Origin: Syntrophomonas sp. UBA5432
GTDB lineage: Bacteria; Bacillota; Syntrophomonadia; Syntrophomonadales; Syntrophomonadaceae
Assembly: GCA_002424365.1 (NCBI GenBank)
Contig: DIRQ01000032.1
Span: 80,245-144,244, forward strand
DNA: 64,000 bases
Direction: 5' to 3'
Positions 18,672-58,095 of the stretch are shown one piece after another (the first letter of the stretch is position 1; every line of letters begins with the position of its first letter). The notes beneath the pieces are model-generated. The model was given only the letters and a program-made list of their open reading frames with translations, was not told the DNA's origin and ran no database searches. The position numbers and the translations under genes were made by a program.

Positions 18672-18740
18672 AAACCCAACTTCAATTTTCATCCGTGGTT
18701 GCTTGTGCCCTTCAGGGTATGTCCTATAGCTATGTGGGGT
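18672..18740 (+). repeat. intergenic repeat module 2 (orphan copy)
   Basis: AAACCCAACTTCAATTTTCATCCGTGGTTGCTTGTGCCCTTCAGGGTATGTCCTATAGCTATGTGGGG. Matches 26776-26852 and 31126-31196. Confidence 0.7.
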
Positions 18741-18830
18741 TAATGAGAAATAAAAAAATGCCCCGTTATTTTTGAAAAGCCTATAGTTTTTTGCTGATCT
18801 TATTTTTGCCTCGGGGAAAGAAAGGATATT

Positions 18831-20201
18831 ATGGGCAGGCCAACTGATCAGCACAATCTTATAATGCTGAAAATGTTGTGGTTTATTACTATCATTACCT
18901 GCTTGCTCGACCTGGTACAGGGTAAGCATTATACTTTGTTCCAGTATATAATTATGCTTACCATTCTGCTTCTGCCCACCTTATTGCTATTGGGAGATAT
19001 ATTCTTAATCCGGGGGAGCTATCTTCTGGTTACGGTTCTTATTCTATATTTCTCCCTGCGCCTTTTTTGGCAGCCTTCGCTTATTAATCTACTATTACTT
19101 TACTTGGTCATGTTTCTTACTGTTATTTACCGACAAACCGCTCTGATTCTGACGGCATCTATAGCTGCAATCGTGGTTAGTATTATTGTCTTCCAACTAC
19201 ATTCAGGTAGCCTGGTAGATGCGGTGGAACGGATGCATCCAGTATGGTTTATAATTCCTGGTTTAATTCTTATTATTCTAATGCTGGTGCTTAATCGTTT
19301 TATCCTGGTTTCACACCGATCTACTAAAAAGGAGCAGCAGCAGTGGCATAATATCCAAGCAGGGTTTGCCATACTAACCTGGTCTTACGAACTTAAGAGA
19401 GGACAGTTATTTATGTCCAAGGGCATAGAAGAGCTGACCGGGTTGCCGGCAGATTTTTTCATAAAACGACCGGAAAGAATGCAAAAACTAGTTCATCCCT
19501 ATGATTCGTTACGCCTATTTGAGGCTTACAAAGATTTGCTGGCAGGTAAAAAAAGGGTTCTCGAACATCGCTTGCTACTAACTGACGGCAGTATACGATG
19601 GGTTCAGCATCTGGCCCTACCCTTTCAGGATAAGGCTGGAAATATAACAAGGTTAGATGGCTTAATTATAGATATGAGTAAACAAAGAGTGAGAGAAGAA
19701 AAAATAAAACACATGGCTTTTTACGACCAATTAACGGGTTTACCTAACCGGATTATGTTTGAAAATTATTTTGCCCTTACTTTAGCCGGGCAGATACATC
19801 AAGAGCAGAAATTAGCGTTAATTTTTATTGACTTGGATCATTTTAAACAGGTAAATGATGAATTGGGGCATGATGTCGGTGATCTGCTTTTAAAAGAGGT
19901 GGGGATAAGAATTAAAGGGGTTATGCGGGAAAATGACCTGCTGGCACGTCTGGGAGGAGATGAATTTATTGCATTATTATCTTCTGTTTCACATGAAACA
20001 ATTACACTGGTGGCTGAGCGTATAGTTGATGCCTTCAGCCGTAATTTTGCGGTTAAAGGGCATGAATTACGTGTAGGCGCAAGTATAGGTATTAGTATGT
20101 ATCCAAAAGACGGCAGGGATTTGGAGACCCTTATTAAAAGTGCGGATAAGGCCATGTATACAGCCAAAAAAAAGGGAAAGAACCAATATTATTTTGGTTA
20201 A
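18831..20201 (+). CDS. membrane-bound diguanylate cyclase (multi-TM N-terminus, PAS, GGDEF)
   Basis: 456 aa. GGDEF active site in RLGGDEFIAL with an RxxD I-site (REND) 5 residues upstream. The exact start is uncertain (ATG 18831 or 18864). Confidence 0.85.
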   Translation: MGRPTDQHNLIMLKMLWFITIITCLLDLVQGKHYTLFQYIIMLTILLLPTLLLLGDIFLIRGSYLLVTVLILYFSLRLFWQPSLINLLLLYLVMFLTVIYRQTALILTASIAAIVVSIIVFQLHSGSLVDAVERMHPVWFIIPGLILIILMLVLNRFILVSHRSTKKEQQQWHNIQAGFAILTWSYELKRGQLFMSKGIEELTGLPADFFIKRPERMQKLVHPYDSLRLFEAYKDLLAGKKRVLEHRLLLTDGSIRWVQHLALPFQDKAGNITRLDGLIIDMSKQRVREEKIKHMAFYDQLTGLPNRIMFENYFALTLAGQIHQEQKLALIFIDLDHFKQVNDELGHDVGDLLLKEVGIRIKGVMRENDLLARLGGDEFIALLSSVSHETITLVAERIVDAFSRNFAVKGHELRVGASIGISMYPKDGRDLETLIKSADKAMYTAKKKGKNQYYFG

Positions 20202-20280
20202 ATTGAAAGCTACGAAAGGCGGGGTATTGAAACTTCTATTTTATACTACTTAATTCGCGATCAGCATGAAATTTAAATTA

Positions 20281-20325
20281 AGGCAACAGGGAACCGAAGC
20301 TTATAAAACAGTTCTCCTGTTGCCT
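20281..20325. terminator. hairpin between the convergent cyclase gene and the Gln-rich ORF
   Basis: AGGCAACAGGGAAC ... GTTCTCCTGTTGCCT, a 14-15 bp stem with one mismatch. Confidence 0.5.
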
Positions 20326-20330
20326 GATCT

Positions 20331-20636
20331 TTATTGCAGACCCGGATAAGATTCAGAACCGTTAACCTGGCGCTGGAAATTTATTAACATCTGTTCCGTC
20401 TGCTGTAAATCCATCTGTTGCTGAGCTGATACACTAGGAGCAGCATACTGCCGGGCCTCTTGTATCTGCTGCATGGCTTCATCTAGTTTTTGCTGGGCAA
20501 ACTGGATCTCCTGGGGATTTAGGCTGGCCTCAGCCTGTTGTACTGCTCTACGAGCTTGCTGAGCTGATAGAATAGCCTGCTGTACTGACTGTTGGGCTTG
20601 CTCTAAATTCTTTTCCTGCCGGTTTGATGGTGCCAG
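20331..20636 (-). CDS. putative Gln-rich coiled-coil protein, no canonical start codon (candidate CTG start)
   Basis: 102-codon open frame on the minus strand (LAPSNRQEKNLEQAQQSVQQAILSAQQARRAVQQAE...SYPGLQ-stop). A perfect GGAGGTGA lies immediately after the upstream TOBE stop. The first in-frame ATG leaves only 45 codons, so the ORF track omits it. Confidence 0.4.
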   Translation of the reverse strand: MAPSNRQEKNLEQAQQSVQQAILSAQQARRAVQQAEASLNPQEIQFAQQKLDEAMQQIQEARQYAAPSVSAQQQMDLQQTEQMLINFQRQVNGSESYPGLQ

Positions 20637-20650
20637 AACTAATCACCTCC

Positions 20651-20938
20651 TTATCTAATATAGTTTTCCTCCATTACTGTTTCCATCCATCGAGGGGCCC
20701 AAGGTAAGGTTTCATCGGAGTCCTCATTCTTGGTATCTTTAATTATGGTAATCATGGTTGAATTAAACATGGCAAATACCTGGTCACCTTTTTGCAACTT
20801 CATATCGTTAACTGCAGCACTAGTTATGGTTGCAGTTACTGCCTGGTCGCCCACGTCCATTATGACTTCACTCATGATAGGCCCACTTTTAATCTCCATT
20901 ACACTTGCCACCAGTTTATTGGGGTCACTGATTCGCAA
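20651..20938 (-). CDS. TOBE-domain (Mop-like molybdate-binding) protein with C-terminal extension
   Basis: ORF 20651-20971. TTG at 20938 lies 8 nt after AAGGAGG and yields MRISDPNKLVASVMEIKSG...ITSAAVNDMKLQKGDQVFAMFNS, a typical TOBE start and fold pattern. Confidence 0.7.
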   Translation of the reverse strand: MRISDPNKLVASVMEIKSGPIMSEVIMDVGDQAVTATITSAAVNDMKLQKGDQVFAMFNSTMITIIKDTKNEDSDETLPWAPRWMETVMEENYIR

Positions 20939-21038
20939 AATAAATCCCTCCTTTTTATCTATAGCTTGCACCTTAGCCAGCTAAATATAAGTGGATGGAA
21001 AATATTTTTAGTCAATCTGTCAGGGACAGTCAGTGGAC

Positions 21039-21593
21039 TTATTGAAACAAGGCGGTAAGTATAAGGCTTAATTGCTGAGCAGTTTCTTCAAAGGTGAGGT
21101 TGTTTTCGAGAATAAAGGTAGGATTAAGTACGTTCTGAATGGCGGCAACAATTACCGTACTTAATATAAGGGGATCAATATTTTGCAGGCGAGTCGGATA
21201 GGGGGTCATAAGGTGGTTCAATACCTTACGTATTTGTTTAATACGAAAAGAATCTATTTTGTCCCAGAGCTGGGGGTAATAAAAGCGCAGGTCGCCCAAG
21301 GTAGATGGGTTAATTATAAACTGCCCTTGGGAGGAAAGATAATTAAGTAGGCTTTTGAAAAAAACGGAAGGGTGTTCACTTCGGGATAGCAAATCCTCTA
21401 CCCGAGCTGTTGCACCTAACATAAATTGATCCAGGGAGGCTTCGATTATACTCTCTTTGCTGTCAAAATAGCGGTAAACCGTTCTCTTACTTACCCCAGC
21501 CCGTTGAGCCAGTTCATCCATAGTAAAACCCCGTAATCCTTGCTTAACTGCCAGGTCGCGGCAAGCTTTTAATATACGATCCCTGATATCCAT
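21039..21593 (-). CDS. TetR/AcrR-family transcriptional regulator
   Basis: 184 aa. N-terminal HTH FTMDELAQRAGVSKRTVYRYFDSKE. Confidence 0.88.
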   Translation of the reverse strand: MDIRDRILKACRDLAVKQGLRGFTMDELAQRAGVSKRTVYRYFDSKESIIEASLDQFMLGATARVEDLLSRSEHPSVFFKSLLNYLSSQGQFIINPSTLGDLRFYYPQLWDKIDSFRIKQIRKVLNHLMTPYPTRLQNIDPLILSTVIVAAIQNVLNPTFILENNLTFEETAQQLSLILTALFQ

Positions 21594-21607
21594 TTTAATC
21601 CCTCCAA

Positions 21608-22717
21608 CTAACTTACCGTTTTGCGAAACTTCAGCACACTAATGCTAAGAACCACAACGGAAAACACCAGCAATGATATTACCTGTCCCAGCAAATAATT
21701 AAATCCAATCCCCTTGAGCACAATACCTCGAATTATATCCAGGTAATAAGTGAGGGGAATTAAATAGCTGATAAAATAGATAATTTTAGGCATAGCGGCT
21801 CGGGGAAATAGAAATCCCGATAACATAATACTGGGCAGCATCACGAAAAAGGACATCTGAAAAGCCTGCATCTGAGTTTGAGCCAGATTGGAAATCATTA
21901 AGCCCAGACCCAGGGAGGCAGTTATAAAGAACAGGGTAAGAAGATAAAGCTGCAACAGGCTACCTCGTATAGGAACCTGGAAGACCAGAACCGCCACCAG
22001 CAGAGCCACGGTTATCTGCAGGTAGCCCAGTACAATATAGGGTACTATTTTACCTATCATCAATTCCAGAGGTTTAACCGGGGTGACCATCAATTGTTCC
22101 AGGGTACCCTGCTCTCTTTCCCGTACTATGGCTACTGAAGTGATTATAACCATGGTCATAGTTACGATTATTCCCAGGATGGCCGGTACCATGTAGTAAG
22201 CGGTGATACCATCCGGGTTATACCAGGGTCGAACCCGTATGTCATAAGGAGGCGAAGTTAACTGGGTTTTCTGGAACAGTACCTGCTGAGATTTGAGCAG
22301 GCCTATGGAGTTAGCAATAGCAATAGCCTGGTTAGCCACCATGCTATCACTGGCATCGACAATTACTTGTACTGCTGCCGGGGCTCCTCGATGCAACTGG
22401 CGAGCAAAATCCGGTGGGAAAATAATCCCCACCTGAGCTTGACCACTATCAATGTAGCGGTTTACGTCTTCATAGCTATCAACACCATGGGTAATATCAA
22501 AATAGCCGGAAGCACTGAAGGCTTCTAGCATATCACGGCTGGAAGGGGATAAGGATTGGTCAAATACTACGGTAGGTATATGTTTTACCTCGGTTTGAAT
22601 AGCGTAACCAAAGAGCAGTAATTGCACCAGTGGGATCATGAAAATCAAGGCCAGAGTGAGGCGGTCCCTTTTCATCTGTAAAAATTCTTTTTTTATTACG
22701 GACAAAGTTCTGTTCAC
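21608..22717 (-). CDS. ABC-2 type transporter permease
   Basis: 369 aa. N-terminal TM, large extracytoplasmic loop, then 5 TM segments. YbhS/YbhR-like organisation. Confidence 0.85.
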   Translation of the reverse strand: MNRTLSVIKKEFLQMKRDRLTLALIFMIPLVQLLLFGYAIQTEVKHIPTVVFDQSLSPSSRDMLEAFSASGYFDITHGVDSYEDVNRYIDSGQAQVGIIFPPDFARQLHRGAPAAVQVIVDASDSMVANQAIAIANSIGLLKSQQVLFQKTQLTSPPYDIRVRPWYNPDGITAYYMVPAILGIIVTMTMVIITSVAIVREREQGTLEQLMVTPVKPLELMIGKIVPYIVLGYLQITVALLVAVLVFQVPIRGSLLQLYLLTLFFITASLGLGLMISNLAQTQMQAFQMSFFVMLPSIMLSGFLFPRAAMPKIIYFISYLIPLTYYLDIIRGIVLKGIGFNYLLGQVISLLVFSVVVLSISVLKFRKTVS

Positions 22718-23640
22718 TATAGCTCCCGCCTTTCCTCCTTATCCTGTTGACGCAGCAGGTTAATAAAAACATCTTCCAGATTGGGAGTTAGCCTGATTGG
22801 TTTAAAACCAGTAATATCTTCTAACCCTGCTATATCGTTGCTATCGTTAAGCAGCAGGTGCAGAGAAAGCCCATGGAAACTACATTCCTTTACAAAGGAA
22901 AGAGATTCTAGAGTCTTTATTTGCTTGAATGGTTCAGGTAGGTCCAGCTTTACTAAACAACCAGCCAGGCTTTTCTTGAGCTGGTCAGGACTATCCAGGG
23001 CCAGCAATCGACCTTGATCGAAAAAGGCAATTTTATCACAGCGCTCAGCCTCGTCCATAAAATGAGTGGAGACAATAACCGTTGCTCCCCCTGCGGCCAG
23101 TTCCTGAATAATGTTAAAAAACTGTCGCCTGGCGGTGGGGCTTACCCCACTGGTAGGCTCATCCAGAAAAACCAGAGCCGGACGAGCCATTATGGCACAA
23201 CCCAGGGCCAGGCGCTGTTTAATTCCCGGGCTTAAGGAGGCTACCAGAGCATTTTCCTCACCCTTTATACCTGCCAGTAAAATCATTTTCTCAATGCGCC
23301 TTTTCCTCTCCCGAACCGGGATACTATAGATACCGGCATAGAAGTCCAGGTTTTCTCTTACACTTAAGTCATTATAGAGGCTGAACTTCTGGGACATATA
23401 CCCAATTAAAGGCTTTATTTTTTCACTGTCCTGTTCCACATCAAAGCCCAGCACTTCTGCTTTGCCCGAGCTGGGTTTAAGAATCCCGCAGAGCATACGT
23501 ATGGCAGTTGATTTTCCTGCTCCATTGGGGCCTAAAAAACCACATACTTCTCCACTACTAATCTTAAGGTTGATCTTATCGACGGCAATAAAGCTACCAA
23601 ATTTTCGACTGAGATCAGAAGTATTTACGGTATAAGTCAT
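22717..23640 (-). CDS. ABC transporter ATP-binding protein
   Basis: Walker A GPNGAGKST, signature LSPGIKQR, Walker B FLDEPT. Start and stop overlap the neighbouring genes. Confidence 0.9.
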   Translation of the reverse strand: MTYTVNTSDLSRKFGSFIAVDKINLKISSGEVCGFLGPNGAGKSTAIRMLCGILKPSSGKAEVLGFDVEQDSEKIKPLIGYMSQKFSLYNDLSVRENLDFYAGIYSIPVRERKRRIEKMILLAGIKGEENALVASLSPGIKQRLALGCAIMARPALVFLDEPTSGVSPTARRQFFNIIQELAAGGATVIVSTHFMDEAERCDKIAFFDQGRLLALDSPDQLKKSLAGCLVKLDLPEPFKQIKTLESLSFVKECSFHGLSLHLLLNDSNDIAGLEDITGFKPIRLTPNLEDVFINLLRQQDKEERREL

Positions 23641-24566
23641 GCTTGACCTCCTTGCCTGGTAAACGCTAATTCGGTTAGATAAACAAAAAGGTCTTCCATG
23701 GAAGGTTCGACCTCTTCCAGCGAGAAGCTCTTGCCATCCTGTAGTCTAGCCAGTTGGGTTATCGAGCTTTTAGTAGATTCTATATTCTCTACAATAAGGC
23801 GGTGCTTATAACCGTAAAATGAACTGTAAAGTACTCCGGAAATGTTATCAAAAAGATAAGGGTCTTTAACTCCGGTTCTAACCTCTAACACTTGATGTAA
23901 AAGTCTTTCTTTTAAATGCGCGGGAGTATCTACAACCAGCAACTGCCCCTGGTTGATAAAAGCCAGTTGGTGGCAGAGCTCAGCTTCATCCATATAAGGA
24001 GTAGAGACTAGTACCGTCATACCTTCATGGTTAAGCTGGTAAAGGATCTTCCAGAATTCCTTACGGGAATCCGGGTCCACCCCATAAGTGGGCTCGTCCA
24101 GGATTAGAATTGCCGGGCGGGTAAGTAGGGCACAGCTTAAAGACAGCTTTTGTTTCATACCTCCGGAAAGCTGGTGAGCAAGCCTCTTCTTAAAAGGGCC
24201 AAGTCCGGTTATGTCCAGGATTTCATGGGCTCTTTCTATAATAAGGTTACGGCTTAGTCCGTACAAAGAACCAAAAAAATTAATATTCTCCATGACCGTA
24301 AGGTCACCATAGAGGCTAAAACGCTGGGGCATGTAGCCTAGTTCTCCGCTAGTTAATCTATGGGCTGCTCCTCCATCCAGTAACACCTTTCCACTATCAG
24401 CTATAAGAAGGCCACAGATTACCCGGAACAAGGTAGTCTTACCGGCACCGTCAGGGCCAATCAATCCGAATATGCTCTGCCGCTTAACCGAGAGGCTTAC
24501 CTTATCCAGAGCTGCCTTGTCGGCAAAATATTTTGTAATATCGATAACCTCAATCACCATAATCAA
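23637..24566 (-). CDS. ABC transporter ATP-binding protein
   Basis: Walker A GPDGAGKTT, signature LSGGMKQK, Walker B ILDEPT. Confidence 0.9.
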   Translation of the reverse strand: MIMVIEVIDITKYFADKAALDKVSLSVKRQSIFGLIGPDGAGKTTLFRVICGLLIADSGKVLLDGGAAHRLTSGELGYMPQRFSLYGDLTVMENINFFGSLYGLSRNLIIERAHEILDITGLGPFKKRLAHQLSGGMKQKLSLSCALLTRPAILILDEPTYGVDPDSRKEFWKILYQLNHEGMTVLVSTPYMDEAELCHQLAFINQGQLLVVDTPAHLKERLLHQVLEVRTGVKDPYLFDNISGVLYSSFYGYKHRLIVENIESTKSSITQLARLQDGKSFSLEEVEPSMEDLFVYLTELAFTRQGGQA

Positions 24567-25546: not shown

Positions 25547-25739
25547 ACCCAAGCACTCCTTCATAACCCCTGTAAGTAAACTAATAATACTAATATAGTT
25601 TACCTAGTGTCAATTTCATGATAGCACAGGTATTTATTATTGCCAATAACATTTTCTAAAAGAGCACAGACTGTTATCCGGTTTGCGCATTTATTTGAGG
25701 GTTGTACATAATTCATTTAAAATTAAGTTATTTTAGGAG

Positions 25740-25801
25740 TGTCATCCTGAGGCAAAGCCGAAGGATCTTAAAGATTCTTCGCTGACGCTTAATAATGACA
25801 T
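25740..25801. repeat. imperfect palindromic element TGTCATCCTGAGG...GAAGGATCTT / AAGATTCTTCGC...AATGACA
   Basis: About 30-nt arms read directly. The rc of the right arm, TGTCATTATTAAGCGTCAGCGAAGAATCTT, aligns with the left arm, TGTCATCCTGAGGCAAAGCCGAAGGATCTT. Confidence 0.6.
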
Positions 25802-25900
25802 TTTAGATTTTTTCATTATGCAAAACCCTCATTTTCATAATTTGATTGCCGGAAGTTCGCTATAATAGTAAATGTGAAACATCGGGGAGGAGAGGCAGTA

Positions 25901-26677: not shown

Positions 26678-26682
26678 TTCGG

Positions 26683-26765: not shown

Positions 26766-26775
26766 TTCTTACTAT

Positions 26776-26852
26776 ACCAACCTTATAAATTTAGTTTCAC
26801 TCATGGTTGCGTGTACCCTTTAGGGTATTGGCCTTGTAGTCATGGTGGGTTC
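26776..26852 (+). repeat. intergenic repeat module 2 (forward)
   Basis: ACCAACCTTATAAATTTAGTTTCACTCATGGTTGCGTGTACCCTTTAGGGTATTGGCC... CCAACC can pair with GGTTG. Confidence 0.65.
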
Positions 26853-26951
26853 ATTTCTGTTATTACATTGCTCGCTGTTGGTTAACATACTATAATAGTT
26901 AAAAAACAGCCGCATCTGTATAAAGATGTTGGTGGTAAAGAGGTGAAACTA

Positions 26952-30716: not shown

Positions 30717-30877
30717 CGAGACACCTCCTTATATGAATATATCCGTTTATACTCATATACTATAACTGGTAATTGCGGCTGTCAAGGGTAATAAAATTTA
30801 ATTCCGGTAGGAAAAAGGTTAAGAGTATAGAAAACAACATGTAAAGAACCTATGTTAAAGTAGAGATATCTTAATAA

Positions 30878-30968
30878 GAAAATTGGCTACGTTAATAATG
30901 AAGTTGTCGAGCAAATAACTTCGAATCTATGAATTTGACTAACTGTTTAGAGTGAGGGGTGAGGGGAC
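30878..30968 (+). repeat. intergenic repeat module 1 (forward)
   Basis: GAAAATTGGCTACGTTAATAATGAAGTTGTCGAGCAAATAACTTCGAATCTATGAATTTGACTAACTGTTTAGAGTGAGGGGTGAGGGGAC. Confidence 0.8.
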
Positions 30969-31125
30969 AGTAAAGTATGTGCTCCCCGTTATTCAATTGC
31001 CGAAACAGCTAAACAACCGACCAACTGTCGGTAGCGGAGGCTTCACCTTAGACGGGTACACGGCAGCCTCCGATGGGAAGTGCAGGGAACGGCCCCTGTG
31101 CCGTTCCGTCATGTTGTCGTAATAC
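30969..31125 (+). other. GC-rich structured insert between module 1 and module 2 (candidate cis-regulatory or non-coding RNA)
   Basis: Hairpins CCGAC-CAACT-GTCGG (31017-31031), GGAGGCT...AGCCTCC (31036-31071) and GGGAACGGC-CCCTGT-GCCGTTCC (31085-31107). No ORF. Much more GC-rich than neighbouring intergenic DNA. Confidence 0.5.
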
Positions 31126-31196
31126 CAGTGCAACTATTTTCATAGGTGGTTGCCGTGTGCCCGTAGGGTATGTGTGCTTGGCGCTCATGACGACTT
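31126..31196 (+). repeat. intergenic repeat module 2 (forward), enclosed by stem CGTCATG (31107-31113) / CATGACG (31186-31192)
   Basis: CAGTGCAACTATTTTCATAGGTGGTTGCCGTGTGCCCGTAGGGTATGTGTGCTTGG. GCAAC (31130-31134) pairs with GTTGC (31149-31153). Confidence 0.7.
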
Positions 31197-31217
31197 AATT
31201 AGAAAAAAGGAGTAGAT

Positions 31218-32411
31218 ATGGAGTCGAAACAAATAGTATTAACCGGGTTAGTTGCTACTGCTTTGATAACTGCCCTGGTTTTAAGTGGTTGGGTAGTAGA
31301 TATGGTGGTAGCCTTTCTGATACTGATAGCAGGGATATTACTAACATATTATTTTGCCCTTAACCAGAAGAGAATTGAACAATATAGTACATTAAGAAGC
31401 GCAATCAAAGCTAGCGAAGAGATTAGGAAGCAAACTGATTTAACGGCAGTACTAAACTGCTTAACTATTTGTGCTCAATCACTGCTGGGAATTAAATATG
31501 TCCTTTTATGGCTTCCAGATGATAATATTATGTGGCCGGAGGATGAGGAGTACCATGATTTATTAGAGGATATAGGAAGAAGGGTTAAACTGGGCCCAGA
31601 ACCCCTTCAACTAACTAGACAGGGAGAGAATAGCTTTACCTGGCCTGAAAACACAACCTGGCTAGCAGCTTATCCACTAGTAATGGGAGACGAGTTCCGG
31701 GGAATCATACTTCTATTAAATTCCCGGTCGGATAAGCTGCAGGGGCATACCAAAGAAGTTCTTAATATTTTGTGTCGTCAAAGTGCTGATGCTATATATC
31801 GTGTGCTGGCAGAGCAGAACAGAGAAGGAGATGAGCGGCTACTAATTAATTCACTCTTAGCCGGAATGGAGGCGGGTGACCCCATTTTCAAGGGACATAG
31901 TGAAAGAGTTAACGCTATTGCCGGTTTAATTGGCAGTAAGCTGGGTTTGGATAACGAGGAAATGAAAACCCTGCATTATGCTGCTTTGCTACACGATATT
32001 GGCAAATATGCTGAGACTATGGTCGATGATGAGACAGAATCATTTAGTGACCATGCCAGCCTGGGCGCTGAACTCATCCCGGCGACTGGTATTTTCGCGC
32101 AGGTTCGGGAAACGGTCAGGTATCATCATGAGCGTTATGATGGCAGTGGCTATCCTCTGGGTTTGAGCCGGACGGATATACCGTTTTTAGCCCGAATAAT
32201 TGCTGTAGCTGACGTTTATGATGCTGTAACCCGGCTGTGCAGTGAAGAAGAAAGACTAGATCACCAAACAGCTATAGGTGTTATAAAGAAAGCCACCGGC
32301 ACAATTTTTGACCCGTTAGTGGTAGTAGCTCTGGAGGAAGTGGCCGATGAGGTAGCAAATATCGGGCAAACATCTAAGGATGTTGTCGGGGATATGGATG
32401 AAGTAGAATGA
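31218..32411 (+). CDS. HD-GYP domain c-di-GMP phosphodiesterase with N-terminal TM and GAF-like sensor region
   Basis: 397 aa. HD (AALLHDIGK) and HHERYDGSGYP motifs. Confidence 0.85.
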   Translation: MESKQIVLTGLVATALITALVLSGWVVDMVVAFLILIAGILLTYYFALNQKRIEQYSTLRSAIKASEEIRKQTDLTAVLNCLTICAQSLLGIKYVLLWLPDDNIMWPEDEEYHDLLEDIGRRVKLGPEPLQLTRQGENSFTWPENTTWLAAYPLVMGDEFRGIILLLNSRSDKLQGHTKEVLNILCRQSADAIYRVLAEQNREGDERLLINSLLAGMEAGDPIFKGHSERVNAIAGLIGSKLGLDNEEMKTLHYAALLHDIGKYAETMVDDETESFSDHASLGAELIPATGIFAQVRETVRYHHERYDGSGYPLGLSRTDIPFLARIIAVADVYDAVTRLCSEEERLDHQTAIGVIKKATGTIFDPLVVVALEEVADEVANIGQTSKDVVGDMDEVE

Positions 32412-34384: not shown

Positions 34385-36067
34385 ATGAATCCGGTTCAGG
34401 AACTTCACAACCTTTTGGAAGAATTAATAATTGAGGCTATAGAAGCGTGTAGGGAGGAGGGACAGCTGGATTATCAGCAACTTCCTGACTTTGTCATAGA
34501 GGTTCCCCGGGAAAAAGGGCATGGTGATTTTGCCTGTAATATTGCCATGTTATTAGCTCGGGAGGCTCGTATGGTACCACGTAAAATTGCAGAAACTATT
34601 GTAACTATGATAAACAGTAAAAGCCATCTTCAGATTGAGAAAATTGAAGTGGCGGGACCGGGTTTTATTAATATTTTTCTGAATAACAGCTGGTTATACG
34701 ATATCCCTGTACTAGTTACTGAGTTGGAAGACCGCTATGGCTATAACCCCAGGATAGGCCAGCGGGTACAGGTGGAGTTTGTCAGCGCTAATCCTACCGG
34801 TAACCTGCACATGGGTAATGCTCGCGGGGGAGCTATTGGAGATACGTTGGCTAATATTCTTGACCGTGCCGGCTACGATGTGCAAAGGGAGTTTTACATA
34901 AATGATGCCGGTAACCAGATTGAAATCTTCACTGATTCTCTGGAAACTCGTTATCTGCAGCTAAACGGTTATGACTTACCTTTTCCTGAAGATGGTTATG
35001 CCGGGCAGGATGTAGTGGAAACGGTTAAACGTATAATCAGCCATTATGGTAAGCAACTGTTAGATATGTCATCAGATGAAAGGCGTAAGATTCTATTGGA
35101 TTATGCCCTGGAGGAAAAGGTAAAATATATTCGTAAGACTCTAGAAAACTTTGGGGTTAACTATGATGTTTGGTTTAGTGAGAAGACTTTGCATAAAACA
35201 GGTAAGATAGACGAGGTTGTAAATTATCTGCAAGAAAAGGGCTATGTTTATGAAGGGGAAGATGCGCTCTGGTTTAAATCTACCCTTTTTGGGGATGAAA
35301 AAGATGAAGTAATAATGAGAGCCAATGGTATACCTACTTATTTTGCAGCAGATATTGCTTATCATAAAGATAAATTTGAACGAGGCTTTGATTGGGTGAT
35401 AAATGTCTGGGGAGCAGATCATCACGGTCATGTAGCCCGCATGAAAGGAGCTATGGAGGCCTTAGGTTATGACCCTGATAAATTGGATATCCTTTTAATG
35501 CAGTTGGTGAGGTTGTATCGGGGGGGTAATATTGTCCGTATGTCTAAACGTACCGGCACCACGGTTTCGCTGGATGAACTAATAGAAGAAGTTGGTCGTG
35601 ATGCTGCTCGTTACTTTTTCGTTATGCGCAGTCCGGATAGTCATCTTGATTTTGACCTGGAGTTGGCCAAGCAACAAAACCAGGAAAATCCGGTGTATTA
35701 TGTTCAATATGCTCATGCCCGGATATGCAGCATTTTTCGCCAGGCAGAAGCAGCCGGGGTTAGGATGTCTGGAATAGCAGAGATTGACCCTTCTCTGTTG
35801 CAGGAAAAGGAGGAACTGGCTCTATTAAGGAAAATTGCTGATTTCCCGGAAGAGATTTGTGTTGCCGCCAGGGCGATGGCACCACAACGTATAGCCCGCT
35901 ATGTATTGGAGTTGGCTGGATTATTTCATAGCTTCTATAATCATCACCGGGTTTTACACCAGGATCAGGCATTGCAGAACGCTCGCCTGCTGCTGATGTA
36001 TATTACCCGCATAACCATTAAGAACTCACTTGATATATTAGGAGTAAATTCACCAGAACGAATGTAG
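34385..36067 (+). CDS. argS: arginine--tRNA ligase
   Basis: ATG at 34385 follows [23 protein letters not shown] (HIGH region), RMSKRTG (KMSKS-like), C-terminal DALR anticodon-binding domain. Confidence 0.93.
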
Positions 36068-40060: not shown

Positions 40061-40261
40061 GACATAAACCCCCCTCTAAGTTTTTTTTTCTACGACAACA
40101 ACCTAACAATTGCCCCCCCACCCTAGGCATATTTTACATTCCTAGTATATATTAGAATATTCGCACAAAAATGTAGATATCCTCTTAGAAAACAAAGTCT
40201 AAATATTCTGAATATTTGACCAAGTAGGTTTCCGGTCGTTTCCAATTAGCCCTCCACATAT

Positions 40262-40312
40262 CCAGAGGCCATACGTAAATAGTATAGGTAACCACCCATG
40301 AAAATGGCCCCA
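40262..40312 (-). repeat. intergenic repeat module 2 (reverse)
   Basis: The rc reads GGGGCCATTTTCATGGGTGGTTACCTATACTATTTACGTATGGCC. Confidence 0.55.
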
Positions 40313-50096: not shown

Positions 50097-50105
50097 AGTA
50101 TTTAC

Positions 50106-50141: not shown

Positions 50142-50187
50142 ATGTCTGCAATTAGGATAGGCTATAATGAGAATTAAGAATTAATAC

Positions 50188-50289: not shown

Positions 50290-50354
50290 TGCCAACCCGA
50301 CATAATCAGGTACAATTAGAATTCGCATCAATAATTGAAAGCTGAGGTTAGCAG

Positions 50355-51602: not shown

Positions 51603-51640
51603 GCTATGCTTATTTATCATTTAAAGGAGTCGAGGCGAAG

Positions 51641-52633
51641 TTGGAAAAGAAAGGACCATTTACCGTTAAAGAACTCAGGAGCCTTTCCCCGGGTACCCAA
51701 TTTTGGGGCAAATATTTAATACTGGATAAAAACCAGCGTAAAATCAAAGATGGTCGTGATATTATTAACCTTAAACTGGGGGATACTACCGGAGAGGTAG
51801 ATGCAGTAGTATGGGATAGTTGTAAGGTTACTGGTGAACTGGAAAATGGGGCGGTAATTGGATTGATGGCTGATGTGGGCTCGTACAACAACCGCTTGCA
51901 GGCGACCGCCAAGCGCATTAAGATTCTGGAAGAGGATCCCCTGGATTATTTGAAAAAGCCTGATGTAGATATAAATGACTTAATCGAACAGTTTGAGTAC
52001 ATTATAAATTCGGTGACCAACCCCTATCTGCAGGAATTACTAACTCGCATATTTACTCCCACGGTGCGAACTATTTTCTTTCGCGCCCCGGCAGCAAAAA
52101 AAATTCATCATAACTACAGCGGCGGACTCTTAGAACATACCCTGACTGTAGCTCAACTTTGCATCCAGGTAGCCGGGAATTATCCTGATATTAACCGCGA
52201 TTTGCTTATAAGTGGAGCCCTTTTACATGACATCGGCAAGTTGCAGGAGTACGAAATGAAGGTGGTACCGGAATATACGGTTGAAGGTAGACTGTTGGGG
52301 CACATCGTTATGGGTAGCGAATTAATAACAACCCAAATTGCTCAAATGCGGGTAGAAAACATAGATTTTCCCCCTAAGCTGGAATGGATGTTAAAACATA
52401 TGATTTTAAGTCACCATGGCAGTCTGGAATTTGGCTCACCAGTAATTCCATTATTCCCGGAAGCCTTTATGCTTTATATGATGGATAACCTTGATGCTAA
52501 GATGTTTGTTTATAAACAAAAGATTGATGAAAATAATGGAGCAGATGAACTCTTTACCAACTATGACAGTTTCTTTGGGCAGTATTTTTTCACCTACCGT
52601 TATCAGGAAAATAACAATGGAAAGGAAGAATAG
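51641..52633 (+). CDS. yhaM: 3'-5' exoribonuclease YhaM-like (OB-fold + HD domain)
   Basis: N-terminal OB fold. HD domain HHNY.GGLLEHT ... LLHDIGK. Confidence 0.82.
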   Translation: MEKKGPFTVKELRSLSPGTQFWGKYLILDKNQRKIKDGRDIINLKLGDTTGEVDAVVWDSCKVTGELENGAVIGLMADVGSYNNRLQATAKRIKILEEDPLDYLKKPDVDINDLIEQFEYIINSVTNPYLQELLTRIFTPTVRTIFFRAPAAKKIHHNYSGGLLEHTLTVAQLCIQVAGNYPDINRDLLISGALLHDIGKLQEYEMKVVPEYTVEGRLLGHIVMGSELITTQIAQMRVENIDFPPKLEWMLKHMILSHHGSLEFGSPVIPLFPEAFMLYMMDNLDAKMFVYKQKIDENNGADELFTNYDSFFGQYFFTYRYQENNNGKEE

Positions 52634-52635
52634 TC

Positions 52636-52857
52636 ATGCCAATTATTAACGTGCAAATGATTGCTGGGCGCAGCCAGGAAAAAAAACAAGAACTGGTGGC
52701 GGTTTTGACTCGAGAAACAGCACGAATACTGGATGTCGAGCCCGATTGGGTGACCGTGGTTATTAATGAATACACCCGGGATAACTGGGCTAGTGGCGGT
52801 GAACTTCATTCCATTAAATTAGGCGAAGGTTTCGGCCGCCAGGGAACGGGGAAATAA
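52636..52857 (+). CDS. 4-oxalocrotonate tautomerase-family protein
   Basis: MPIINVQM...GRS.E.K..L: catalytic Pro1 and the typical beta-alpha-beta start. Confidence 0.8.
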   Translation: MPIINVQMIAGRSQEKKQELVAVLTRETARILDVEPDWVTVVINEYTRDNWASGGELHSIKLGEGFGRQGTGK

Positions 52858-52863
52858 TTACTA

Positions 52864-53577
52864 ATGAAACGATCTTATAAACAATTGTTTTTAGCTTTAT
52901 TTATCCTGTTCTTACTGGTAGTTATCTGGCAAGAATACTATGGTACCCGTTTAGGCCCAACCATGATTACAGATAAACTAGACCTGGGACCTGCTTGCCA
53001 GGTACCCCTGCAAATAAGTTCAGAAGACCAAAATGGTAATGATATTCCCGATGCCCTGGATTTGGTTCAAGGTGCTCGCCAGGAGGTGGAGCGCGGAACC
53101 CTTTATGATGCATCATATTATTCCGGCGGTTATCCGCCTGAGGGCAAGGGTTGCTGTACCGATGTAATTTGGCGGGCCTTTGAAGCTGCCGGGTATAATT
53201 TTAAGACCATGGTGGATGAAGATATAAAGAATTATCCGGAAGCCTATGGTATTACCGGCACCCAGCCTGACCGGGATATTGATTTTCGCCGGGTAAAAAA
53301 TCTGCAGATATTTTTTAAGCGTCATGGGCAGGAGCTAACCACCGAAGTAAAACCAGGAGATGTGGAAAACCTAAAACAATGGCAGCCAGGCGACATTGTG
53401 GTTTTTGGTGATCCACTGGAACATATAGGAATTATTTCTGACCAACGTCTAAAGAGCGGAATACCACTGGTAATACATAATGGAGGTCCCCGGGCCAGTG
53501 AGGCTAACGCCCTGCAGCTCTGGCCCAGTAAAATCATCTATCACTTCCGCTACTTTACCGAAAAACCTGTGCTATAA
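52864..53577 (+). CDS. DUF1287-family protein with N-terminal anchor
   Basis: YDASYYSGGYPPEGKGCCTDVIWRAFEAAGYNF and DIVVFG...HIGI resemble the DUF1287 pattern (from memory). Confidence 0.6.
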   Translation: MKRSYKQLFLALFILFLLVVIWQEYYGTRLGPTMITDKLDLGPACQVPLQISSEDQNGNDIPDALDLVQGARQEVERGTLYDASYYSGGYPPEGKGCCTDVIWRAFEAAGYNFKTMVDEDIKNYPEAYGITGTQPDRDIDFRRVKNLQIFFKRHGQELTTEVKPGDVENLKQWQPGDIVVFGDPLEHIGIISDQRLKSGIPLVIHNGGPRASEANALQLWPSKIIYHFRYFTEKPVL

Positions 53578-53750
53578 CCCTGGAACTATCAAGGAGTAGG
53601 GATAAAAGGCGAGGGGAAACCGAAACCCCGACATGAAATTTCTTGTGTTTTAAGAGCTTTATTGATATAATTTTCTTTGCAGTTTTTAATGGAAATTCAT
53701 ATATCCATATAGAATAAGCAGCAACCTTTGAAGTGAGGTGAAAACAGAAA

Positions 53751-53954
53751 GTGAAAGAAAAAATACATCCCCAGTATCGTATGACCACAGCCAGATGCGC
53801 TTGTGGTAACGAGTTTGAAGTTGGGTCTACCAAGGAGAACATAAAAGTAGAAGTCTGCTCCAAGTGTCACCCCTTCTACACCGGTAACAAAGGCAGAGTA
53901 GTTGATACCACCGGGAGAGTTGACCGGTTTAAGAAAAAATATGGTTTACAGTAA
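53751..53954 (+). CDS. rpmE: 50S ribosomal protein L31 (zinc-binding type A)
   Basis: MKEKIHPQY...CACGNEF...[13 protein letters not shown] start. Confidence 0.95.
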
Positions 53955-53958
53955 AGTG

Positions 53959-53988
53959 ATAGCAGGGCGTAGACTCTGCTATTTTTTT
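53959..53988 (+). terminator. rho-independent terminator after rpmE
   Basis: ATAGCAG-10 nt-CTGCTAT followed by T6-7. Confidence 0.7.
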
Positions 53989-54038
53989 AACTATCGGTGA
54001 CTACTGCTGAGTTTGTGGATCGAGCATTAAAATAATGA

Positions 54039-54172
54039 TATAGTGAGGAGTTCGGGATGAGAAGCATGGAATACGAAAATATCCTCACCCCTTACCCCTC
54101 ACTCCAGACAACTAATCAAGTTCTAAATTCGAAGTTATCTATAAGACAACTTTGTTATCAGCGTCTATTTTC
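54039..54172 (-). repeat. intergenic repeat module 1 (reverse) preceded by a partial forward G-rich arm, forming a long hairpin
   Basis: ATAGTGAGGAGTTCGGGATGAGAAG...TATCCTCACCCCTTACCCCTCACTCCAGACAACTAATCAAGTTCTAAATTCGAAGTTATCTATAAGACAACTTTGTTATCAGCGTCTATTTTC. Confidence 0.85.
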
Positions 54173-54190
54173 TTACTAAGGTGGTATTTA

Positions 54191-55108
54191 ATGAATAAGA
54201 AGGTTCAATACGGCGGTATGGCTGTTATAGAAGGAGTAATGATGCGGGGACCTGAAAAAATAGCCCTAGCTGTCCGTAAAACTGATGGCAGAATCGAACT
54301 GGAAGAAGAACCTGTATCCGACCTGCCGGTACGCTACCCCTTTTTAAAATGGCCTTTCCTAAGAGGAACTTACGTTTTAATTGATTCAATGGTAGTGGGT
54401 ATGCGGATGCTTAATAAATCAGCTAACATGTCACTGGATGAAGAGGAAGAGGAACTCTCCACCGGGGAAATAGTGATTACTGGTTTACTAGCTTTTGCCC
54501 TGGCTATACTGCTTTTTGTAATACTACCTACTGCTATTGTACATTACACCAGTCGGTTTCTGGGTGGTGTTTTGACTCAGAATATAGTGGAAGGCATTAT
54601 ACGCATATTCTTTTTCCTGGCTTATGTTTGGGCTATTGGTAAGATGCAGGAAATAGACCGAGTTTTTATGTATCATGGGGCTGAACACAAATCCATATTT
54701 GCCTACGAAGCAGGGGAAGAACTTACCATAGAGAACACCAGCAAACACACTACCCTCCATCCCCGTTGCGGTACCAGTTTTATTCTTATCGTTTTAATTA
54801 TTTCTATTCTGGTGTTTGCTTTGCTAGGTGACGGAAGCCTATTTTACCGCATATGGTCTAGAATAGCAGTTCTGCCAATAGTAGCAGGCCTGGGTTATGA
54901 ATTTCTTAAGTTTAGCGGAAAATATTATAATAATCGCTGGGCTCGCATATTAATTGCACCGGGTCTTTACCTTCAGAAGCTTACCACTCAAGAACCTGAT
55001 GATGATCAATTAGAAGTTGCTATTGCTGCCTTAAAGGCAGTTATCCCGGGGGAAAAGTCTCAAGATTCCAGTATAGAGAGTTTAGTGGGAGTAAATTGCG
55101 AAATTTGA
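54191..55108 (+). CDS. DUF1385-family membrane protein (commonly linked to prfA/prmC)
   Basis: ATG at 54191 follows AAGGTGG. MNKKVQYGGMAVIEGVMMRG... and YHGAEHK motifs. The ORF-track start at 54152 lies inside the repeat. Confidence 0.8.
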   Translation: MNKKVQYGGMAVIEGVMMRGPEKIALAVRKTDGRIELEEEPVSDLPVRYPFLKWPFLRGTYVLIDSMVVGMRMLNKSANMSLDEEEEELSTGEIVITGLLAFALAILLFVILPTAIVHYTSRFLGGVLTQNIVEGIIRIFFFLAYVWAIGKMQEIDRVFMYHGAEHKSIFAYEAGEELTIENTSKHTTLHPRCGTSFILIVLIISILVFALLGDGSLFYRIWSRIAVLPIVAGLGYEFLKFSGKYYNNRWARILIAPGLYLQKLTTQEPDDDQLEVAIAALKAVIPGEKSQDSSIESLVGVNCEI

Positions 55109-55142
55109 CTTTTAGAATAATGAAAGATAAGGAGGGTTTCGA

Positions 55143-56210
55143 ATGCTGCATAAACTGGATAGTATCGAAGAAAAATATGATGAACTAAATGAACAAATGA
55201 GCAGACCGGAAGTGATATCCGACCAGAGTAAATTCCAAAAGTATGCCAAGGCTCATTCGGACCTCAGTGATATAGTTTCTCGGTACCGAGAGTATAAATC
55301 ATTAATCCAGCAGATTAATGATGCCCAGGAAATGCTTACAGAAGAACCGGATGAAGAGTTTAAAGTGATGCTACTGGAGGAATTGGAAACCCTGAAGGAA
55401 AAACAAGGTCTGGCAGAGCATGATTTACGAATATTACTTCTACCCCGTGATCCTAATGATGAGAAGAGTGTTATTATGGAAATCCGCGCTGGAACCGGAG
55501 GCGAAGAGGCAGCTCTTTTTGCCAGCGACCTATTTCGTATGTATACTCGCTATGCTGAGTTGCAGGGTTGGAAGATAGATATAATGGATTCTCACTATAC
55601 TGATATTGGTGGTATCAAGGAAATTATCTTTGTGGTTGATGGTCAAGGAGCTTATAGCCGACTTAAATACGAATCCGGTGTCCACCGGGTGCAACGTGTT
55701 CCGAGCACTGAATCAGGTGGTCGCATACACACTTCTGCAGCTACGGTAGCTGTACTACCGGAAGCGGAAGAGGTAGAAGTGGAAATAGATCCAAATGAGA
55801 TCAGGGTGGATGTATATTGTTCCAGCGGACCTGGAGGACAATCGGTTAATACGACTCAGTCGGCTGTACGTCTTACCCATATTCCTACCGGCCTGGTGGT
55901 AACCTGCCAAGACGAAAAATCTCAGCATAAGAACAAAGCCAAGGCCTTAAGGGTTTTAAGGGCCCGGCTCAAAGAGATTATGGAGGCTGAAGTGAATGCG
56001 GAAATGGCCGGTACTCGCAAAAGCCAGGTGGGTAGCGGTGACCGCAGTGAGCGCATCCGTACCTATAATTTCCCCCAGGGTAGAGTAAGCGATCATAGAA
56101 TTAACCTTACCTTGCATAAATTGGATTTGGTACTGGAAGGGCAACTAAATGAAATTATTGACGCTCTTATCGCCAATGACCAGGCTGAGCGTTTAAAACA
56201 GGTGGATTAG
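55143..56210 (+). CDS. prfA: peptide chain release factor 1
   Basis: 355 aa. PST/PxT-type recognition region (RVPSTES) and GGQ motif (SGPGGQSVN). Confidence 0.96.
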
Positions 56211-56211
56211 C

Positions 56212-57066
56212 TTGCAGAGTTGGACGGTCAAAGAATTACTGGAGTGGACCAGCAATTATTTTAGAGAAAAAAAGATTAAGGAAGCCCGTCTAGAGGCGGA
56301 AATCCTGTTGGCCCGGGTACTGGGGAAAGACCGGGTCTATTTATATGCTAATTATGATGCCCCGGTAAATCAGGATGAAAGAAGTATCTTCAGGGAATTC
56401 ATAAAAAGAAGGGTTAAGAAAGAGCCGTTGTCTTATATTACCGGGACCAAAGAGTTTATGTCACTGGAGTTTAGAGTTAATCCGGCGGTTTTAATTCCCC
56501 GTCCGGAAAGTGAAATTATAGTGGAACGGGCTATTGATTTGTTTAGAGACCGACCCTGCTCCATCTGCGATATAGGTACCGGTTCGGGTGCGCTGGCTGT
56601 TAGTCTGGCTCACTACCTGCCTTTGGCCCAGGTTTTTGCCACCGATATATCACGGCCAGCACTGGAAACGGCCCGGGAGAATGCTTCTCGGCTTCAGGTT
56701 AAGGTTGAATTTTTGGAGGGGGATTTGCTCTCTCCTTTTTTAGATAAAGAAGACCACTTTGACTTAATAGTTGCTAACCTTCCCTATATTCCATTAGAGG
56801 AATACTATACTCTGGACTCTGGGGTAAAAAGTTACGAACCGCAATTAGCTTTACTTGCTCCCGGAGATGGATTTGATATTTATCGGCGTCTTATACCCCA
56901 GGCTTTTACCCTGCTTAAAGAAGGGGCTTATCTTTTTATTGAAATAGGATGGAAGCAGGGGGAAAAGGCTTTACAGATGATGAATAACTTTGAAGATGTA
57001 CAATTAATCAAAGACCTGGCCGGCTATGACCGGGTAGTAACGGCTAGAAAGGGGTCAGTTAGGTGA
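56212..57066 (+). CDS. prmC: release factor glutamine methyltransferase
   Basis: SAM motif DIGTGSGA and the NLPY (NPPY-type) motif. Confidence 0.92.
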   Translation: MQSWTVKELLEWTSNYFREKKIKEARLEAEILLARVLGKDRVYLYANYDAPVNQDERSIFREFIKRRVKKEPLSYITGTKEFMSLEFRVNPAVLIPRPESEIIVERAIDLFRDRPCSICDIGTGSGALAVSLAHYLPLAQVFATDISRPALETARENASRLQVKVEFLEGDLLSPFLDKEDHFDLIVANLPYIPLEEYYTLDSGVKSYEPQLALLAPGDGFDIYRRLIPQAFTLLKEGAYLFIEIGWKQGEKALQMMNNFEDVQLIKDLAGYDRVVTARKGSVR

Positions 57067-58034
57067 TAACCCAATACTGGAAAGTAAATCCGGTAAAGCC
57101 GGAAACAGATATTATAACCCGGGCTGCAGCTTTAATAGAGGATATACAGCTGGTGGCATTTCCCACTGAAACTGTTTATGGACTAGGTGCCTTGGCCAGC
57201 TCCAGTGAGGCAGTGACAAAAATCTTTGCAGCTAAAGGCAGACCGGCAGAAAATCCCTTGCTGGTACATGTAAGTAAGATAGAACAGGTAAAGGAACTGG
57301 TTCTGGAGATACCTGAAACCGCCAGTTTATTGATGGAAAAGTTCTGGCCCGGGCCGCTGTCAATTATATTACCTTCCCGGAAAGAAGTTCCAGCAATTGT
57401 TCGCGGAGGAAAAAGCAGTGTAGGTTTGCGGATGCCATCTCATCCGGTAGCCCGGGCTCTTATTGACCAGACTGGACCTATTGCTGCTCCCAGTGCCAAC
57501 CTTTCCGGGCGCCCCAGTCCTCTGACCGCTGAGCATGTCAAAGCTGATCTTGATGGTAGAATAGCAGCAGTCCTGGATGCTGGTGCGACTGGAATCGGAT
57601 TGGAATCAACTATAGTTGATTTAAGCCAGGACAAATATCAGGTATTACGCCTGGGAGGGCTTCCCCTGGAGGAACTGCAACAAGTACTGGGGGAGGTAAA
57701 AGTCAATTATCATGAAAATGATAAACTACCCCATTTCCAAACTAGTTCCCAGGTCATTATTTGCCAAAATGGAAAAGATTTTATTGACCAGCAGAAATAT
57801 TGGCTTGGGCAGAAAAGAAAACTGGCAATTGTTTCAAGTAAACTAGGACAACCGCATATTATTAATAAATCAGTTCAAGTATATGATTTAGACCTGGGCG
57901 AGGATAGTAGTAATCTTTATACAATATTACGTGATGCTGAACAGGTCGGTATCGAAATACTGCTCTTCTCCCCCTTACCCCAAAATTTAACCGGCATTAA
58001 CCGGGCTCTGCTGGAACGCATTAACAAATTATGA
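57063..58034 (+). CDS. tsaC: L-threonylcarbamoyladenylate synthase (Sua5/YwlC long form)
   Basis: FPTETVYGLGA, KGRP..NPL..HV, SAN.SGRPSP, plus the C-terminal Sua5 domain. Confidence 0.9.
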   Translation: MITQYWKVNPVKPETDIITRAAALIEDIQLVAFPTETVYGLGALASSSEAVTKIFAAKGRPAENPLLVHVSKIEQVKELVLEIPETASLLMEKFWPGPLSIILPSRKEVPAIVRGGKSSVGLRMPSHPVARALIDQTGPIAAPSANLSGRPSPLTAEHVKADLDGRIAAVLDAGATGIGLESTIVDLSQDKYQVLRLGGLPLEELQQVLGEVKVNYHENDKLPHFQTSSQVIICQNGKDFIDQQKYWLGQKRKLAIVSSKLGQPHIINKSVQVYDLDLGEDSSNLYTILRDAEQVGIEILLFSPLPQNLTGINRALLERINKL

Positions 58035-58047
58035 ATTAATGTTGAGA

Positions 58048-58095
58048 TACGGCCCATGAGCACACTCATATAACCATGATGAAAATGGCCATGAG
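58048..58095 (-). repeat. intergenic repeat module 2 (reverse, shortened)
   Basis: The rc reads CTCATGGCCATTTTCATCATGGTTATATGAGTGTGCTCATGGGCCGTAT. Confidence 0.5.

Follow-up and report, generated by a model that had tools for sequence, protein, structure and literature searches.

The BOX elements of Streptococcus pneumoniae have the structure boxA-boxB(n)-boxC and are gene-less, intergenic repeats which often lie near gene starts and are transcribed together with their neighbours; to our knowledge no dedicated transposase is associated with them. The bacterial interspersed mosaic elements (BIMEs) of Escherichia coli, which are mosaics of repetitive extragenic palindromes (REPs), and the Neisseria intergenic mosaic elements (NIMEs) with dRS3 are composed of short non-coding modules that are combined in variable order into intergenic arrays by a recurring short joining motif; part of their anatomy is described in PMC3116915 and PMC3337134. 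A repeat reminiscent of these, module 2, occurs in a 64,000-nucleotide stretch of Syntrophomonas sp. UBA5432 (contig DIRQ01000032.1, positions 80,245 to 144,244 of the forward strand; hereafter the window, whose own numbering is used below), at some sites together with a second repeat, module 1. An earlier description made from the letters of the window (the sequence-only reading) had presented module 2 as a hairpin-forming element situated 5' of co-oriented genes. The analysis reported here argues that module 2 is probably the conserved right-hand part of intergenic repeats that carry no genes, are mobile or recombinogenic and form head-to-tail mosaic arrays. It would then be a non-autonomous mosaic repeat akin to BIMEs, NIMEs, BOX elements or miniature inverted-repeat transposable elements (MITEs), and not a gene-specific regulatory RNA. 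Observed directly are the anatomy of the units, their copy number, their presence or absence between relatives, the tail-like sequence where a site is empty, the absence of any preference for particular genes and the broad distribution among taxa; how the units may move, what kind of enzyme may act on them and what effect they may have on neighbouring genes is inferred.

A unit starts with a short tail, continues with a variable body (module 1 with its G-rich heptamers, ACACTGAT/ACGCTGAT iterons, or none at all) and ends in (CT)ATTTTCAT-NN-GTGGTTG(Y)G, a small hairpin and CATGG-NN-GG(G). Two conserved boxes can be told apart in this end segment, box A (ATTTTCAT-NN-GTGGTTG(Y)G) and box B (CATGG-NN-GGTT), with a covarying small hairpin between them. 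Written out, the conserved core is (CT)ATTTTCAT-NN-GTGGTTG(C/T)G, one or two small hairpins and CATGG-NN-GGGTTAAT-n-AGAAAATAG, so that the core proposed by the sequence-only reading is borne out and runs further than proposed, to ...CATGGnnGGGTTAATnAGAAAATAG. The copies and parts located in the window are given below with E-values from an iterated nhmmer profile built from copies of the genome.

18667-18754, plus strand: module 2 copy 1 (E=1.1e-12), not accompanied by module 1; box A (18685-18701) reads ATTTTCATCCGTGGTTG, the optional hairpin GTGCCCTTCAGGGTAT, box B (18730-18739) CTATGTGGGG and the tail (18740-18751) TTAATGAGAAAT.
26768-26854, plus strand: module 2 copy 2 (E=4.1e-9), following module 1 and upstream of the sodA TATAAT promoter; box A, which has diverged, reads AGTTTCACTCATGGTTG (26793-26809) and box B CATGGTGGGTT (26841-26851).
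30871-30885, plus strand: tail/core motif TTAATAAGAAAATTG, which opens the composite insertion upstream of the HD-GYP gene.
31122-31210, plus strand: module 2 copy 3 (E=2.7e-11, and comparison of filled and empty sites), which closes the 30871-31210 composite on its right; box A spans 31136-31152, the optional hairpin reads GTGCCCGTAGGGTAT, the constant hairpin spans 31172-31188, box B reads CATGACGAC, and the tail, TTAATTAGAAAAAAGGAG (31195-31212), continues into the Shine-Dalgarno (SD) sequence of the gene that starts at 31218.
40236-40308, minus strand: module 2 copy 4, diverged (E=6.3e-6); box A ATTTTCATGGGTGGTTA at 40305-40289, box B/tail TATGTGGAGGGCTAATTGGAAAC.
58048-58095, minus strand: degenerate fragment (copy 5); box A-like ATTTTCATCATGGTTA at 58086-58071, no box B.

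Five copies had been claimed, and four of these are recovered by the profile with E-values from 1e-12 to 6e-6, but the fifth is a degenerate fragment, which the profile misses even at E<=100. It is a box A-only remnant which follows an inverted module 1 and lies antisense to both flanking genes. Tail motif copies stand at array starts across the window, namely at 6820, 10881 (minus strand), 30871, 31195, 50181 and 54165 (minus strand). What separates module 1 from module 2 at the HD-GYP locus, a GC-rich spacer (31000-31125), is itself a repeat (…GGGAACGGCCCCTGTGCCGTTCC…), which is present in dozens of copies in the same-genus genomes G051 and G064 and once more on contig C59 of the genome that holds the window (G000:C59).

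The genome holding the window (G000) comprises 2.46 Mb in 144 contigs and is, to judge by the relatives of its sodA, a metagenome-assembled Syntrophomonas/Syntrophomonadaceae genome. The regular expression ATTTTCA[TC]..[GA]TGGTT finds 33 matches in it, and the profile finds 62 copies at E<1e-4, of which 60 lie outside genes as approximated by open reading frames (ORFs). A conserved 17-mer, ATTTTCATNNGTGGTTG, has 24 matches in this genome and its reversed pattern none. Module 2 is real, non-coding and multi-copy as had been supposed, and it shares its strand with module 1. The order of module 1 followed by module 2 holds in the window, but it is not fixed genome-wide: module 1 is upstream of 19 of the 62 copies, downstream of 11 and absent within 260 nt of the remaining 32, the strand being nearly always shared where both occur. 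The tail motif TTA(A/G)TnnGAAAATAG has 121 genome-wide matches, compared with 33 for a reversed control, and most of these come after unique sequence and open either module 1 or the ACACTGAT/ACGCTGAT iteron module. A typical array runs from a stop codon through tail, iterons, module 2, tail, module 1 with G-rich heptamers and module 2 to a ribosome-binding site (RBS), which gives the general form tail-(module-tail)n. The arrangement is reduced to bare units of about 65 nt, tail-CCC-box A-hairpin-box B, in genome G091 from another family of the phylum, where they stand in head-to-tail tandem.

The spread of the element was surveyed with the 17-mer. Among 81 Syntrophomonadaceae genomes of 31 genera it is present in 25 genomes and 15 genera at 1-106 copies each, with essentially no matches to the reversed control. 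A separate sample of 400 genomes of the phylum adds two further families in which it is multi-copy (G091 with 17 copies, G158 with 24, G269 with 15 and G300 with 11). Syntrophomonas wolfei has at least 16 copies. No description of these repeats was found in the literature searched, and the family is apparently undescribed so far.

The likeness to BIMEs and NIMEs lies in the short non-coding modules of variable order, the intergenic arrays, the recurring short joining motif, the small hairpins, the high copy number and a content that varies between close relatives. The modules described here thus show the traits of such mosaics (variable order, a recurring joining motif and variation between close relatives), by functional analogy and not by homology, and those of high-copy short extragenic palindromes, with 62 copies of which 60 are intergenic and each of which has a small hairpin. 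They differ in that the sequences are unrelated, that module 2 consists of two invariant boxes around a hairpin and is not a simple palindrome, that it does not flank the resident genes related to REP-associated tyrosine transposases (RAYTs), and that its hosts are Bacillota-type anaerobes and not Proteobacteria. BOX elements share the conserved end boxes around a variable middle and the gene-less, intergenic position often near gene starts; there is no sequence similarity to them, however, and in the present repeats the middle can be made of other repeat families and the units are chained head-to-tail via a shared tail.

Comparison of six loci with same-genus genomes, whose identity around the sites is only 75-90%, shows that the module or the whole array may be there or missing, cut short or exchanged for something else. 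At sodA (compared with L001-L004) module 1 and module 2 are found in the window and in a 98%-identical relative, and of the other relatives one has half a module, one none and one two copies elsewhere; the sodA TATAAT promoter that lies 3' of module 2 is conserved in all relatives compared. This promoter-like region (26860-26950, TTGCTC...TATAAT followed by a hairpin) is kept in four of four close relatives whatever repeats lie upstream. At the HD-GYP locus the sequence is uninterrupted in G074 and G051 (...GATATTGCAATAGAAAAAGGAGCAGATATG); the window has about 330 nt inserted here, made up of tail, module 1, another repeat and module 2, and G064 has a different array with its module 2 end at the same point. 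The GGDEF locus of G064 is without the module 2 core. The locus of copy 5 is empty in G051 and occupied by an unrelated heptamer-armed insert in G064. Three genomes are empty at nusB (...TAGTAAGGAAGGAG...), one has a truncated fragment and one another array; at trpS genome G035 is empty (...AATAAAGAAAGGATG). The truncated fragments at the nusB and trpS loci are those of G051 and G064. It follows that module 2 is not conserved among same-genus genomes before the orthologues of sodA, the HD-GYP gene, the GGDEF gene, nusB or trpS.

The empty sites AATAGAAAAAGGAG, TAGTAAGGAAGGAG and AATAAAGAAAGGATG are close to the tail consensus and resemble TTAAT-AGAAAA, a motif which also opens arrays and is similar to the purine-rich stretch before start codons. 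Filled sites have tail-like sequence at both boundaries. The tail-like character of the empty sites suggests that units enter or recombine at tail-like sequence, and entry at such sites would account for the finding that 13 of 38 co-oriented copies end <=30 nt before a start codon and that arrays begin right after stop codons. The leader-like position of module 2 would thus be due to where the units insert. In agreement with the sequence-only reading module 2 often lies directly 5' of a start codon, and at some loci it must belong to the 5' untranslated region (UTR). The clearest example is trpS (G000:C129, about 35500-35950, minus strand), where an insertion of about 190 nt, made of module 1 and module 2, has come between T-box terminator and RBS and must therefore be transcribed within the leader; in relatives the terminator adjoins the RBS, or other fragments are found there.

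The structure of module 2 differs from what had been proposed. According to the sequence-only reading a covarying stem would make AUUUUCAU (ATTTTCAT) a loop, but this stem stays at shuffle level in tests of both energy and pairing. When the loop is forced open, pairing of the 5' flank with GTGGTTG reaches -2.48 kcal/mol over a set of 80 distinct copies drawn from three genomes, compared with -2.13 for shuffled and -2.26 for reversed 5' flanks. In a gap-free alignment of 40 sequences the position that would close the ATTTTCAT loop has no partner in 26, and pairing in the helix amounts to 67%, without any excess over shuffles. The small hairpin between GTGGTTG(Y)G and CATGG, on the other hand, is 87.5% paired and includes one pair with nine double substitutions (G:C, U:A, A:U and C:G); 12 cells are changed on both sides, a number reached by 7 of 500 shuffles. 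Covariation is confined to this one pair of the small hairpin. Its base pairs are U:G, U:G and G:U, and over all stem positions G:T combinations (155) exceed A:C combinations (32), an excess which implies that the hairpin, if folded, folds on one strand only, as RNA or as single-stranded DNA. A second hairpin, T(G/A)CCC-loop-GGGTA, had also been described; it is real, but it is an optional extra ahead of the constant small hairpin, and its slot may also hold 70-150 nt of other repeat modules.

No consensus structure was returned by RNAalifold for a MAFFT alignment of 31 copies or for subfamily alignments, and an all-against-all scan for column covariation gave noise only. Rfam has no match at gathering score in the window, and copies from the window and from Syntrophomonas wolfei give only chance-level matches at E<=5-10. 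Several candidate identities were discarded. A three-way junction made of an outer stem TTAACCC/GGGTTAA and a stem around ATTTTCAT lacks a conserved 5' strand in S. wolfei and G003, and its stem is at shuffle level; a likeness to pistol or hammerhead ribozymes is not borne out by the Rfam E-value searches; and mini-ORFs (sense ATG-NNN-GGT-TAA, antisense ATGAAAAT...) have no SD sequence and do not always keep the ATG. Nor is module 2 likely to act as a promoter, as there is no recurring sigma-70-like site and the variable length of the hairpin precludes a fixed -35/-10 spacing; the sodA copy lies upstream of the conserved promoter.

The position before genes raises the alternative that module 2 is a structured cis-acting RNA of 5' UTRs, which would either influence translation through pairing of its U-rich box, UAUUUUC, to the purine-rich tail or the SD sequence (GAAAA/GGAGG), or be bound by a global RNA-binding protein. 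This is quite improbable, although several observations agree with it. These include the copies ending close to a co-oriented start codon, the copy within the trpS leader downstream of the T-box terminator, and the strand-specific, G:U-rich pairing of the hairpin. Box A UUUUC is complementary to the tail GAAAA in 80% of cells, and the alternative tails TTAATnAGAAAATAG and TTCCACTGCGAAAAG both retain GAAAA, but double changes are absent. The complementarity between tail and box A extends to 11 nt in one G158 subfamily, and no covariation beyond 6-8 nt is seen within genomes. There is also a weak co-orientation bias in G000, where, among copies whose two neighbours point in the same direction, 31 are co-oriented and 13 anti-oriented (p=0.0096). 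The location upstream of a co-oriented gene that had been noted for four copies of the window stands for these four and not as a rule for the genome, where 13 strong copies are antisense to both neighbours; so are most copies in G003 (13 co-oriented, 18 anti-oriented) and G026 (1 and 4), which together give 14 and 22. A bias with respect to the replication strand is not evident in the complete genome G026 (9 copies compared with 7).

Many copies precede another repeat module instead of a gene, and the RNA alternative finds no support in the stem around ATTTTCAT or in conservation before orthologous genes. The genes downstream of module 2 are functionally unrelated: a Pfam scan of ten that follow directly identified FliM, ScpA, a UbiX-like flavoprotein, GcpE, MoxR, GltX, TrpS, NusB, MnmA and MreB. 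An association with cyclic di-GMP (c-di-GMP) turnover, which had been drawn from the genes in the window, is therefore coincidental. Riboswitches and other leader RNAs resemble module 2 in their 5' UTR position directly upstream of the RBS at some loci and in combining conserved sequence with a hairpin; they differ from it in gene-family specificity, orthologous conservation and an orientation rule, none of which module 2 has across genomes, and module 2 shows covariation at one pair only and no Rfam match. The sequence-only reading had itself named a lack of positional or strand bias together with a lack of covariation, or descent from the decayed end of a known insertion sequence (IS), as grounds for giving up the leader-like element. 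These grounds largely apply, strand bias being missing in G003 and G026 and covariation restricted to the one small hairpin; module 2 was not found to be a decayed end of a known IS.

Module 2 might alternatively be a REP- or REPIN-type element that is moved by resident RAYT-like Y1 transposases acting on the small hairpin as single-stranded DNA, which is a quite improbable explanation. Of three Y1_Tnp genes in G000 one is broken and the other two encode RAYT-like proteins of 253-257 amino acids with a C-terminal helix-turn-helix, and RAYT-like genes are present in 61 of the 81 family genomes. The strand-specific hairpin with its G:T pairs would suit such an enzyme, and a hairpin that flanks RAYT-like genes shares arrays with module 2 in S. 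wolfei. Yet the 14 RAYT-like loci inspected (G000 and 12 homologues elsewhere) are all flanked by this different inverted hairpin, GACAAGGGGACGG, and the module 2 profile has no match at any of them. The distribution of the genes does not track the motif either, as G028 and G069 have many RAYT-like genes and no motif, and G010 and G034 have the motif but no such gene; furthermore, module 2 does not occur in inverted doublets. The RAYT-flanking hairpin has the form (T)GACAAGGGGACGG(GG)TT...TTGTCA and is found in inverted copies (L082 at 1400-1470 and 2229-2260, L081 at 2240-2275, and L132-L143); within arrays beside module 2 it is seen in G026 (L098, L100, L102 and L111).

A cassette system like integron attC or Neisseria dRS3, in which a tyrosine or serine recombinase would use the tail for the crossover and a folded module 2 as its recombination site and arrays would arise by site-specific recombination of small circles, is very unlikely, for although the arrays have the shape tail-(module-tail)n, one native tail-like site holds different arrays in different genomes and B-type copies with ACTTAAC...GTTAATA are reminiscent of RYYYAAC...GTTRRRY, the 5' AAC box is missing in copies of G003 and S. 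wolfei, the 3' box is GTTAATA or GTTAGTA, the units are without ORFs, no recombinase gene is seen beside the arrays, and an integron integrase (TIGR02249) scores above cut-off in none of five motif-rich genomes.

The different flanks and distribution of the RAYT-like genes and the lack of an integron integrase above cut-off also weigh against the reading of module 2 as part of a mobile or recombining repeat, as do the following points. The TnpB-type domain PF07282 was not found. No autonomous copy or cognate enzyme was found in G000 or at the loci of G003, G026, G091 and G158, a search limited by the incompleteness of the metagenome-assembled genome (MAG; 87.7%); the genes beside the G091 arrays are ordinary metabolic genes. 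No clean target-site duplication could be defined among genomes that are only 75-90% identical around the sites. The co-orientation bias in G000 is not accounted for by a pure DNA parasite, and could result from selection against antisense copies or from coupling to the direction of replication. Finally, the boxes are invariant over hundreds of copies and several families, more so than the decay of dead copies predicts, which leaves room for selection on each copy, for instance through an RNA- or protein-binding role.

MITEs and the IS200/IS605-derived palindrome-associated transposable elements (PATEs) compare with the units in their small size, in a possible short inverted repeat at or near the ends (GAAAATAG/CTATTTTC), in a hairpin of subterminal position, in being present at a site in some genomes and absent in others, and in a sequence-specific insertion site beside one end. 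They differ in that no parent IS, IS200-size TnpA or TnpB-type domain was found for the present repeats. The complementarity between GAAAATAG at the unit start and CTATTTTC in box A extends over 6-8 nt, the right repeat is subterminal, and the two show no independent covariation.

If module 2 is the right-hand segment of mobile or recombinogenic repeats, units would enter, or be swapped at, native tail-like sequences that are located right after stop codons or in the A/G-rich stretch just upstream of the SD sequence. Copies would then often end a few bases before the RBS and join the 5' UTR of the gene as a by-product, and every inserted unit would supply a new tail, so that arrays could grow and be reshuffled. 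The invariant boxes around the strand-specific hairpin would most likely be what is recognised by the enzyme when it moves or recombines units, and the preferred candidate for this enzyme would be one acting on single-stranded DNA, of the HUH/Y1 type. A bolder and doubtful proposal is that box A, hairpin and box B form the processing site of an as yet unrecognised DNA-moving or recombining enzyme, distinct from the resident RAYT-like proteins, an IS200/TnpB pair or an integron integrase, that builds head-to-tail arrays at TTAAT-AGAAAA and has spread or persisted through three or more families of Bacillota-type anaerobes with a syntrophic or sulfate-reducing way of life. If this were true, selection by the enzyme would be the reason why the 17-mer is invariant in hundreds of copies, and by landing close to the RBS the element would often rewrite 5' UTRs.

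The sole PF05635 gene of G000, which encodes a 23S rRNA intervening-sequence (IVS) protein with a four-helix bundle (G000:C87, L144 at about 1400-1930, minus strand), is preceded by a long run of GGAGTAA/GGGGTAA heptamers and followed by C-rich heptamers and an inverted module 1. In G026 (where one homologue lies within 23S rRNA), G003 and G064 the homologues are each enclosed by their own inverted tandem repeats of 7-11 nt. The G064 insert at the locus of copy 5 (L165, G064:C143, about 3870-4110) is gene-less, lies between inverted AATTTTN/GAATTTT heptamer runs and resembles the arms of the PF05635 cassette of that genome (L149). The module 1 heptamers may descend from the arms of PF05635 cassettes; the link holds for these heptamers, and module 2 lies outside those cassettes.

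For the biology of these organisms, the analysis removes a false lead, that of a c-di-GMP-linked, riboswitch-like leader, and replaces it with the testable picture of a widespread mosaic repeat family in Syntrophomonadaceae and two other families of the phylum. Such repeats break MAG assemblies and can mislead searches for non-coding RNA. The sharply conserved boxes offer a handle on the mobilising enzyme, and the insertion between T-box terminator and RBS at trpS is an opportunity provided by nature to see how the repeat affects a gene under riboswitch control. As the insertion sites mimic the sequence just upstream of the RBS and just after stop codons, housekeeping genes, trpS, nusB and gltX among them, would have had their 5' UTRs and operon junctions remodelled repeatedly.

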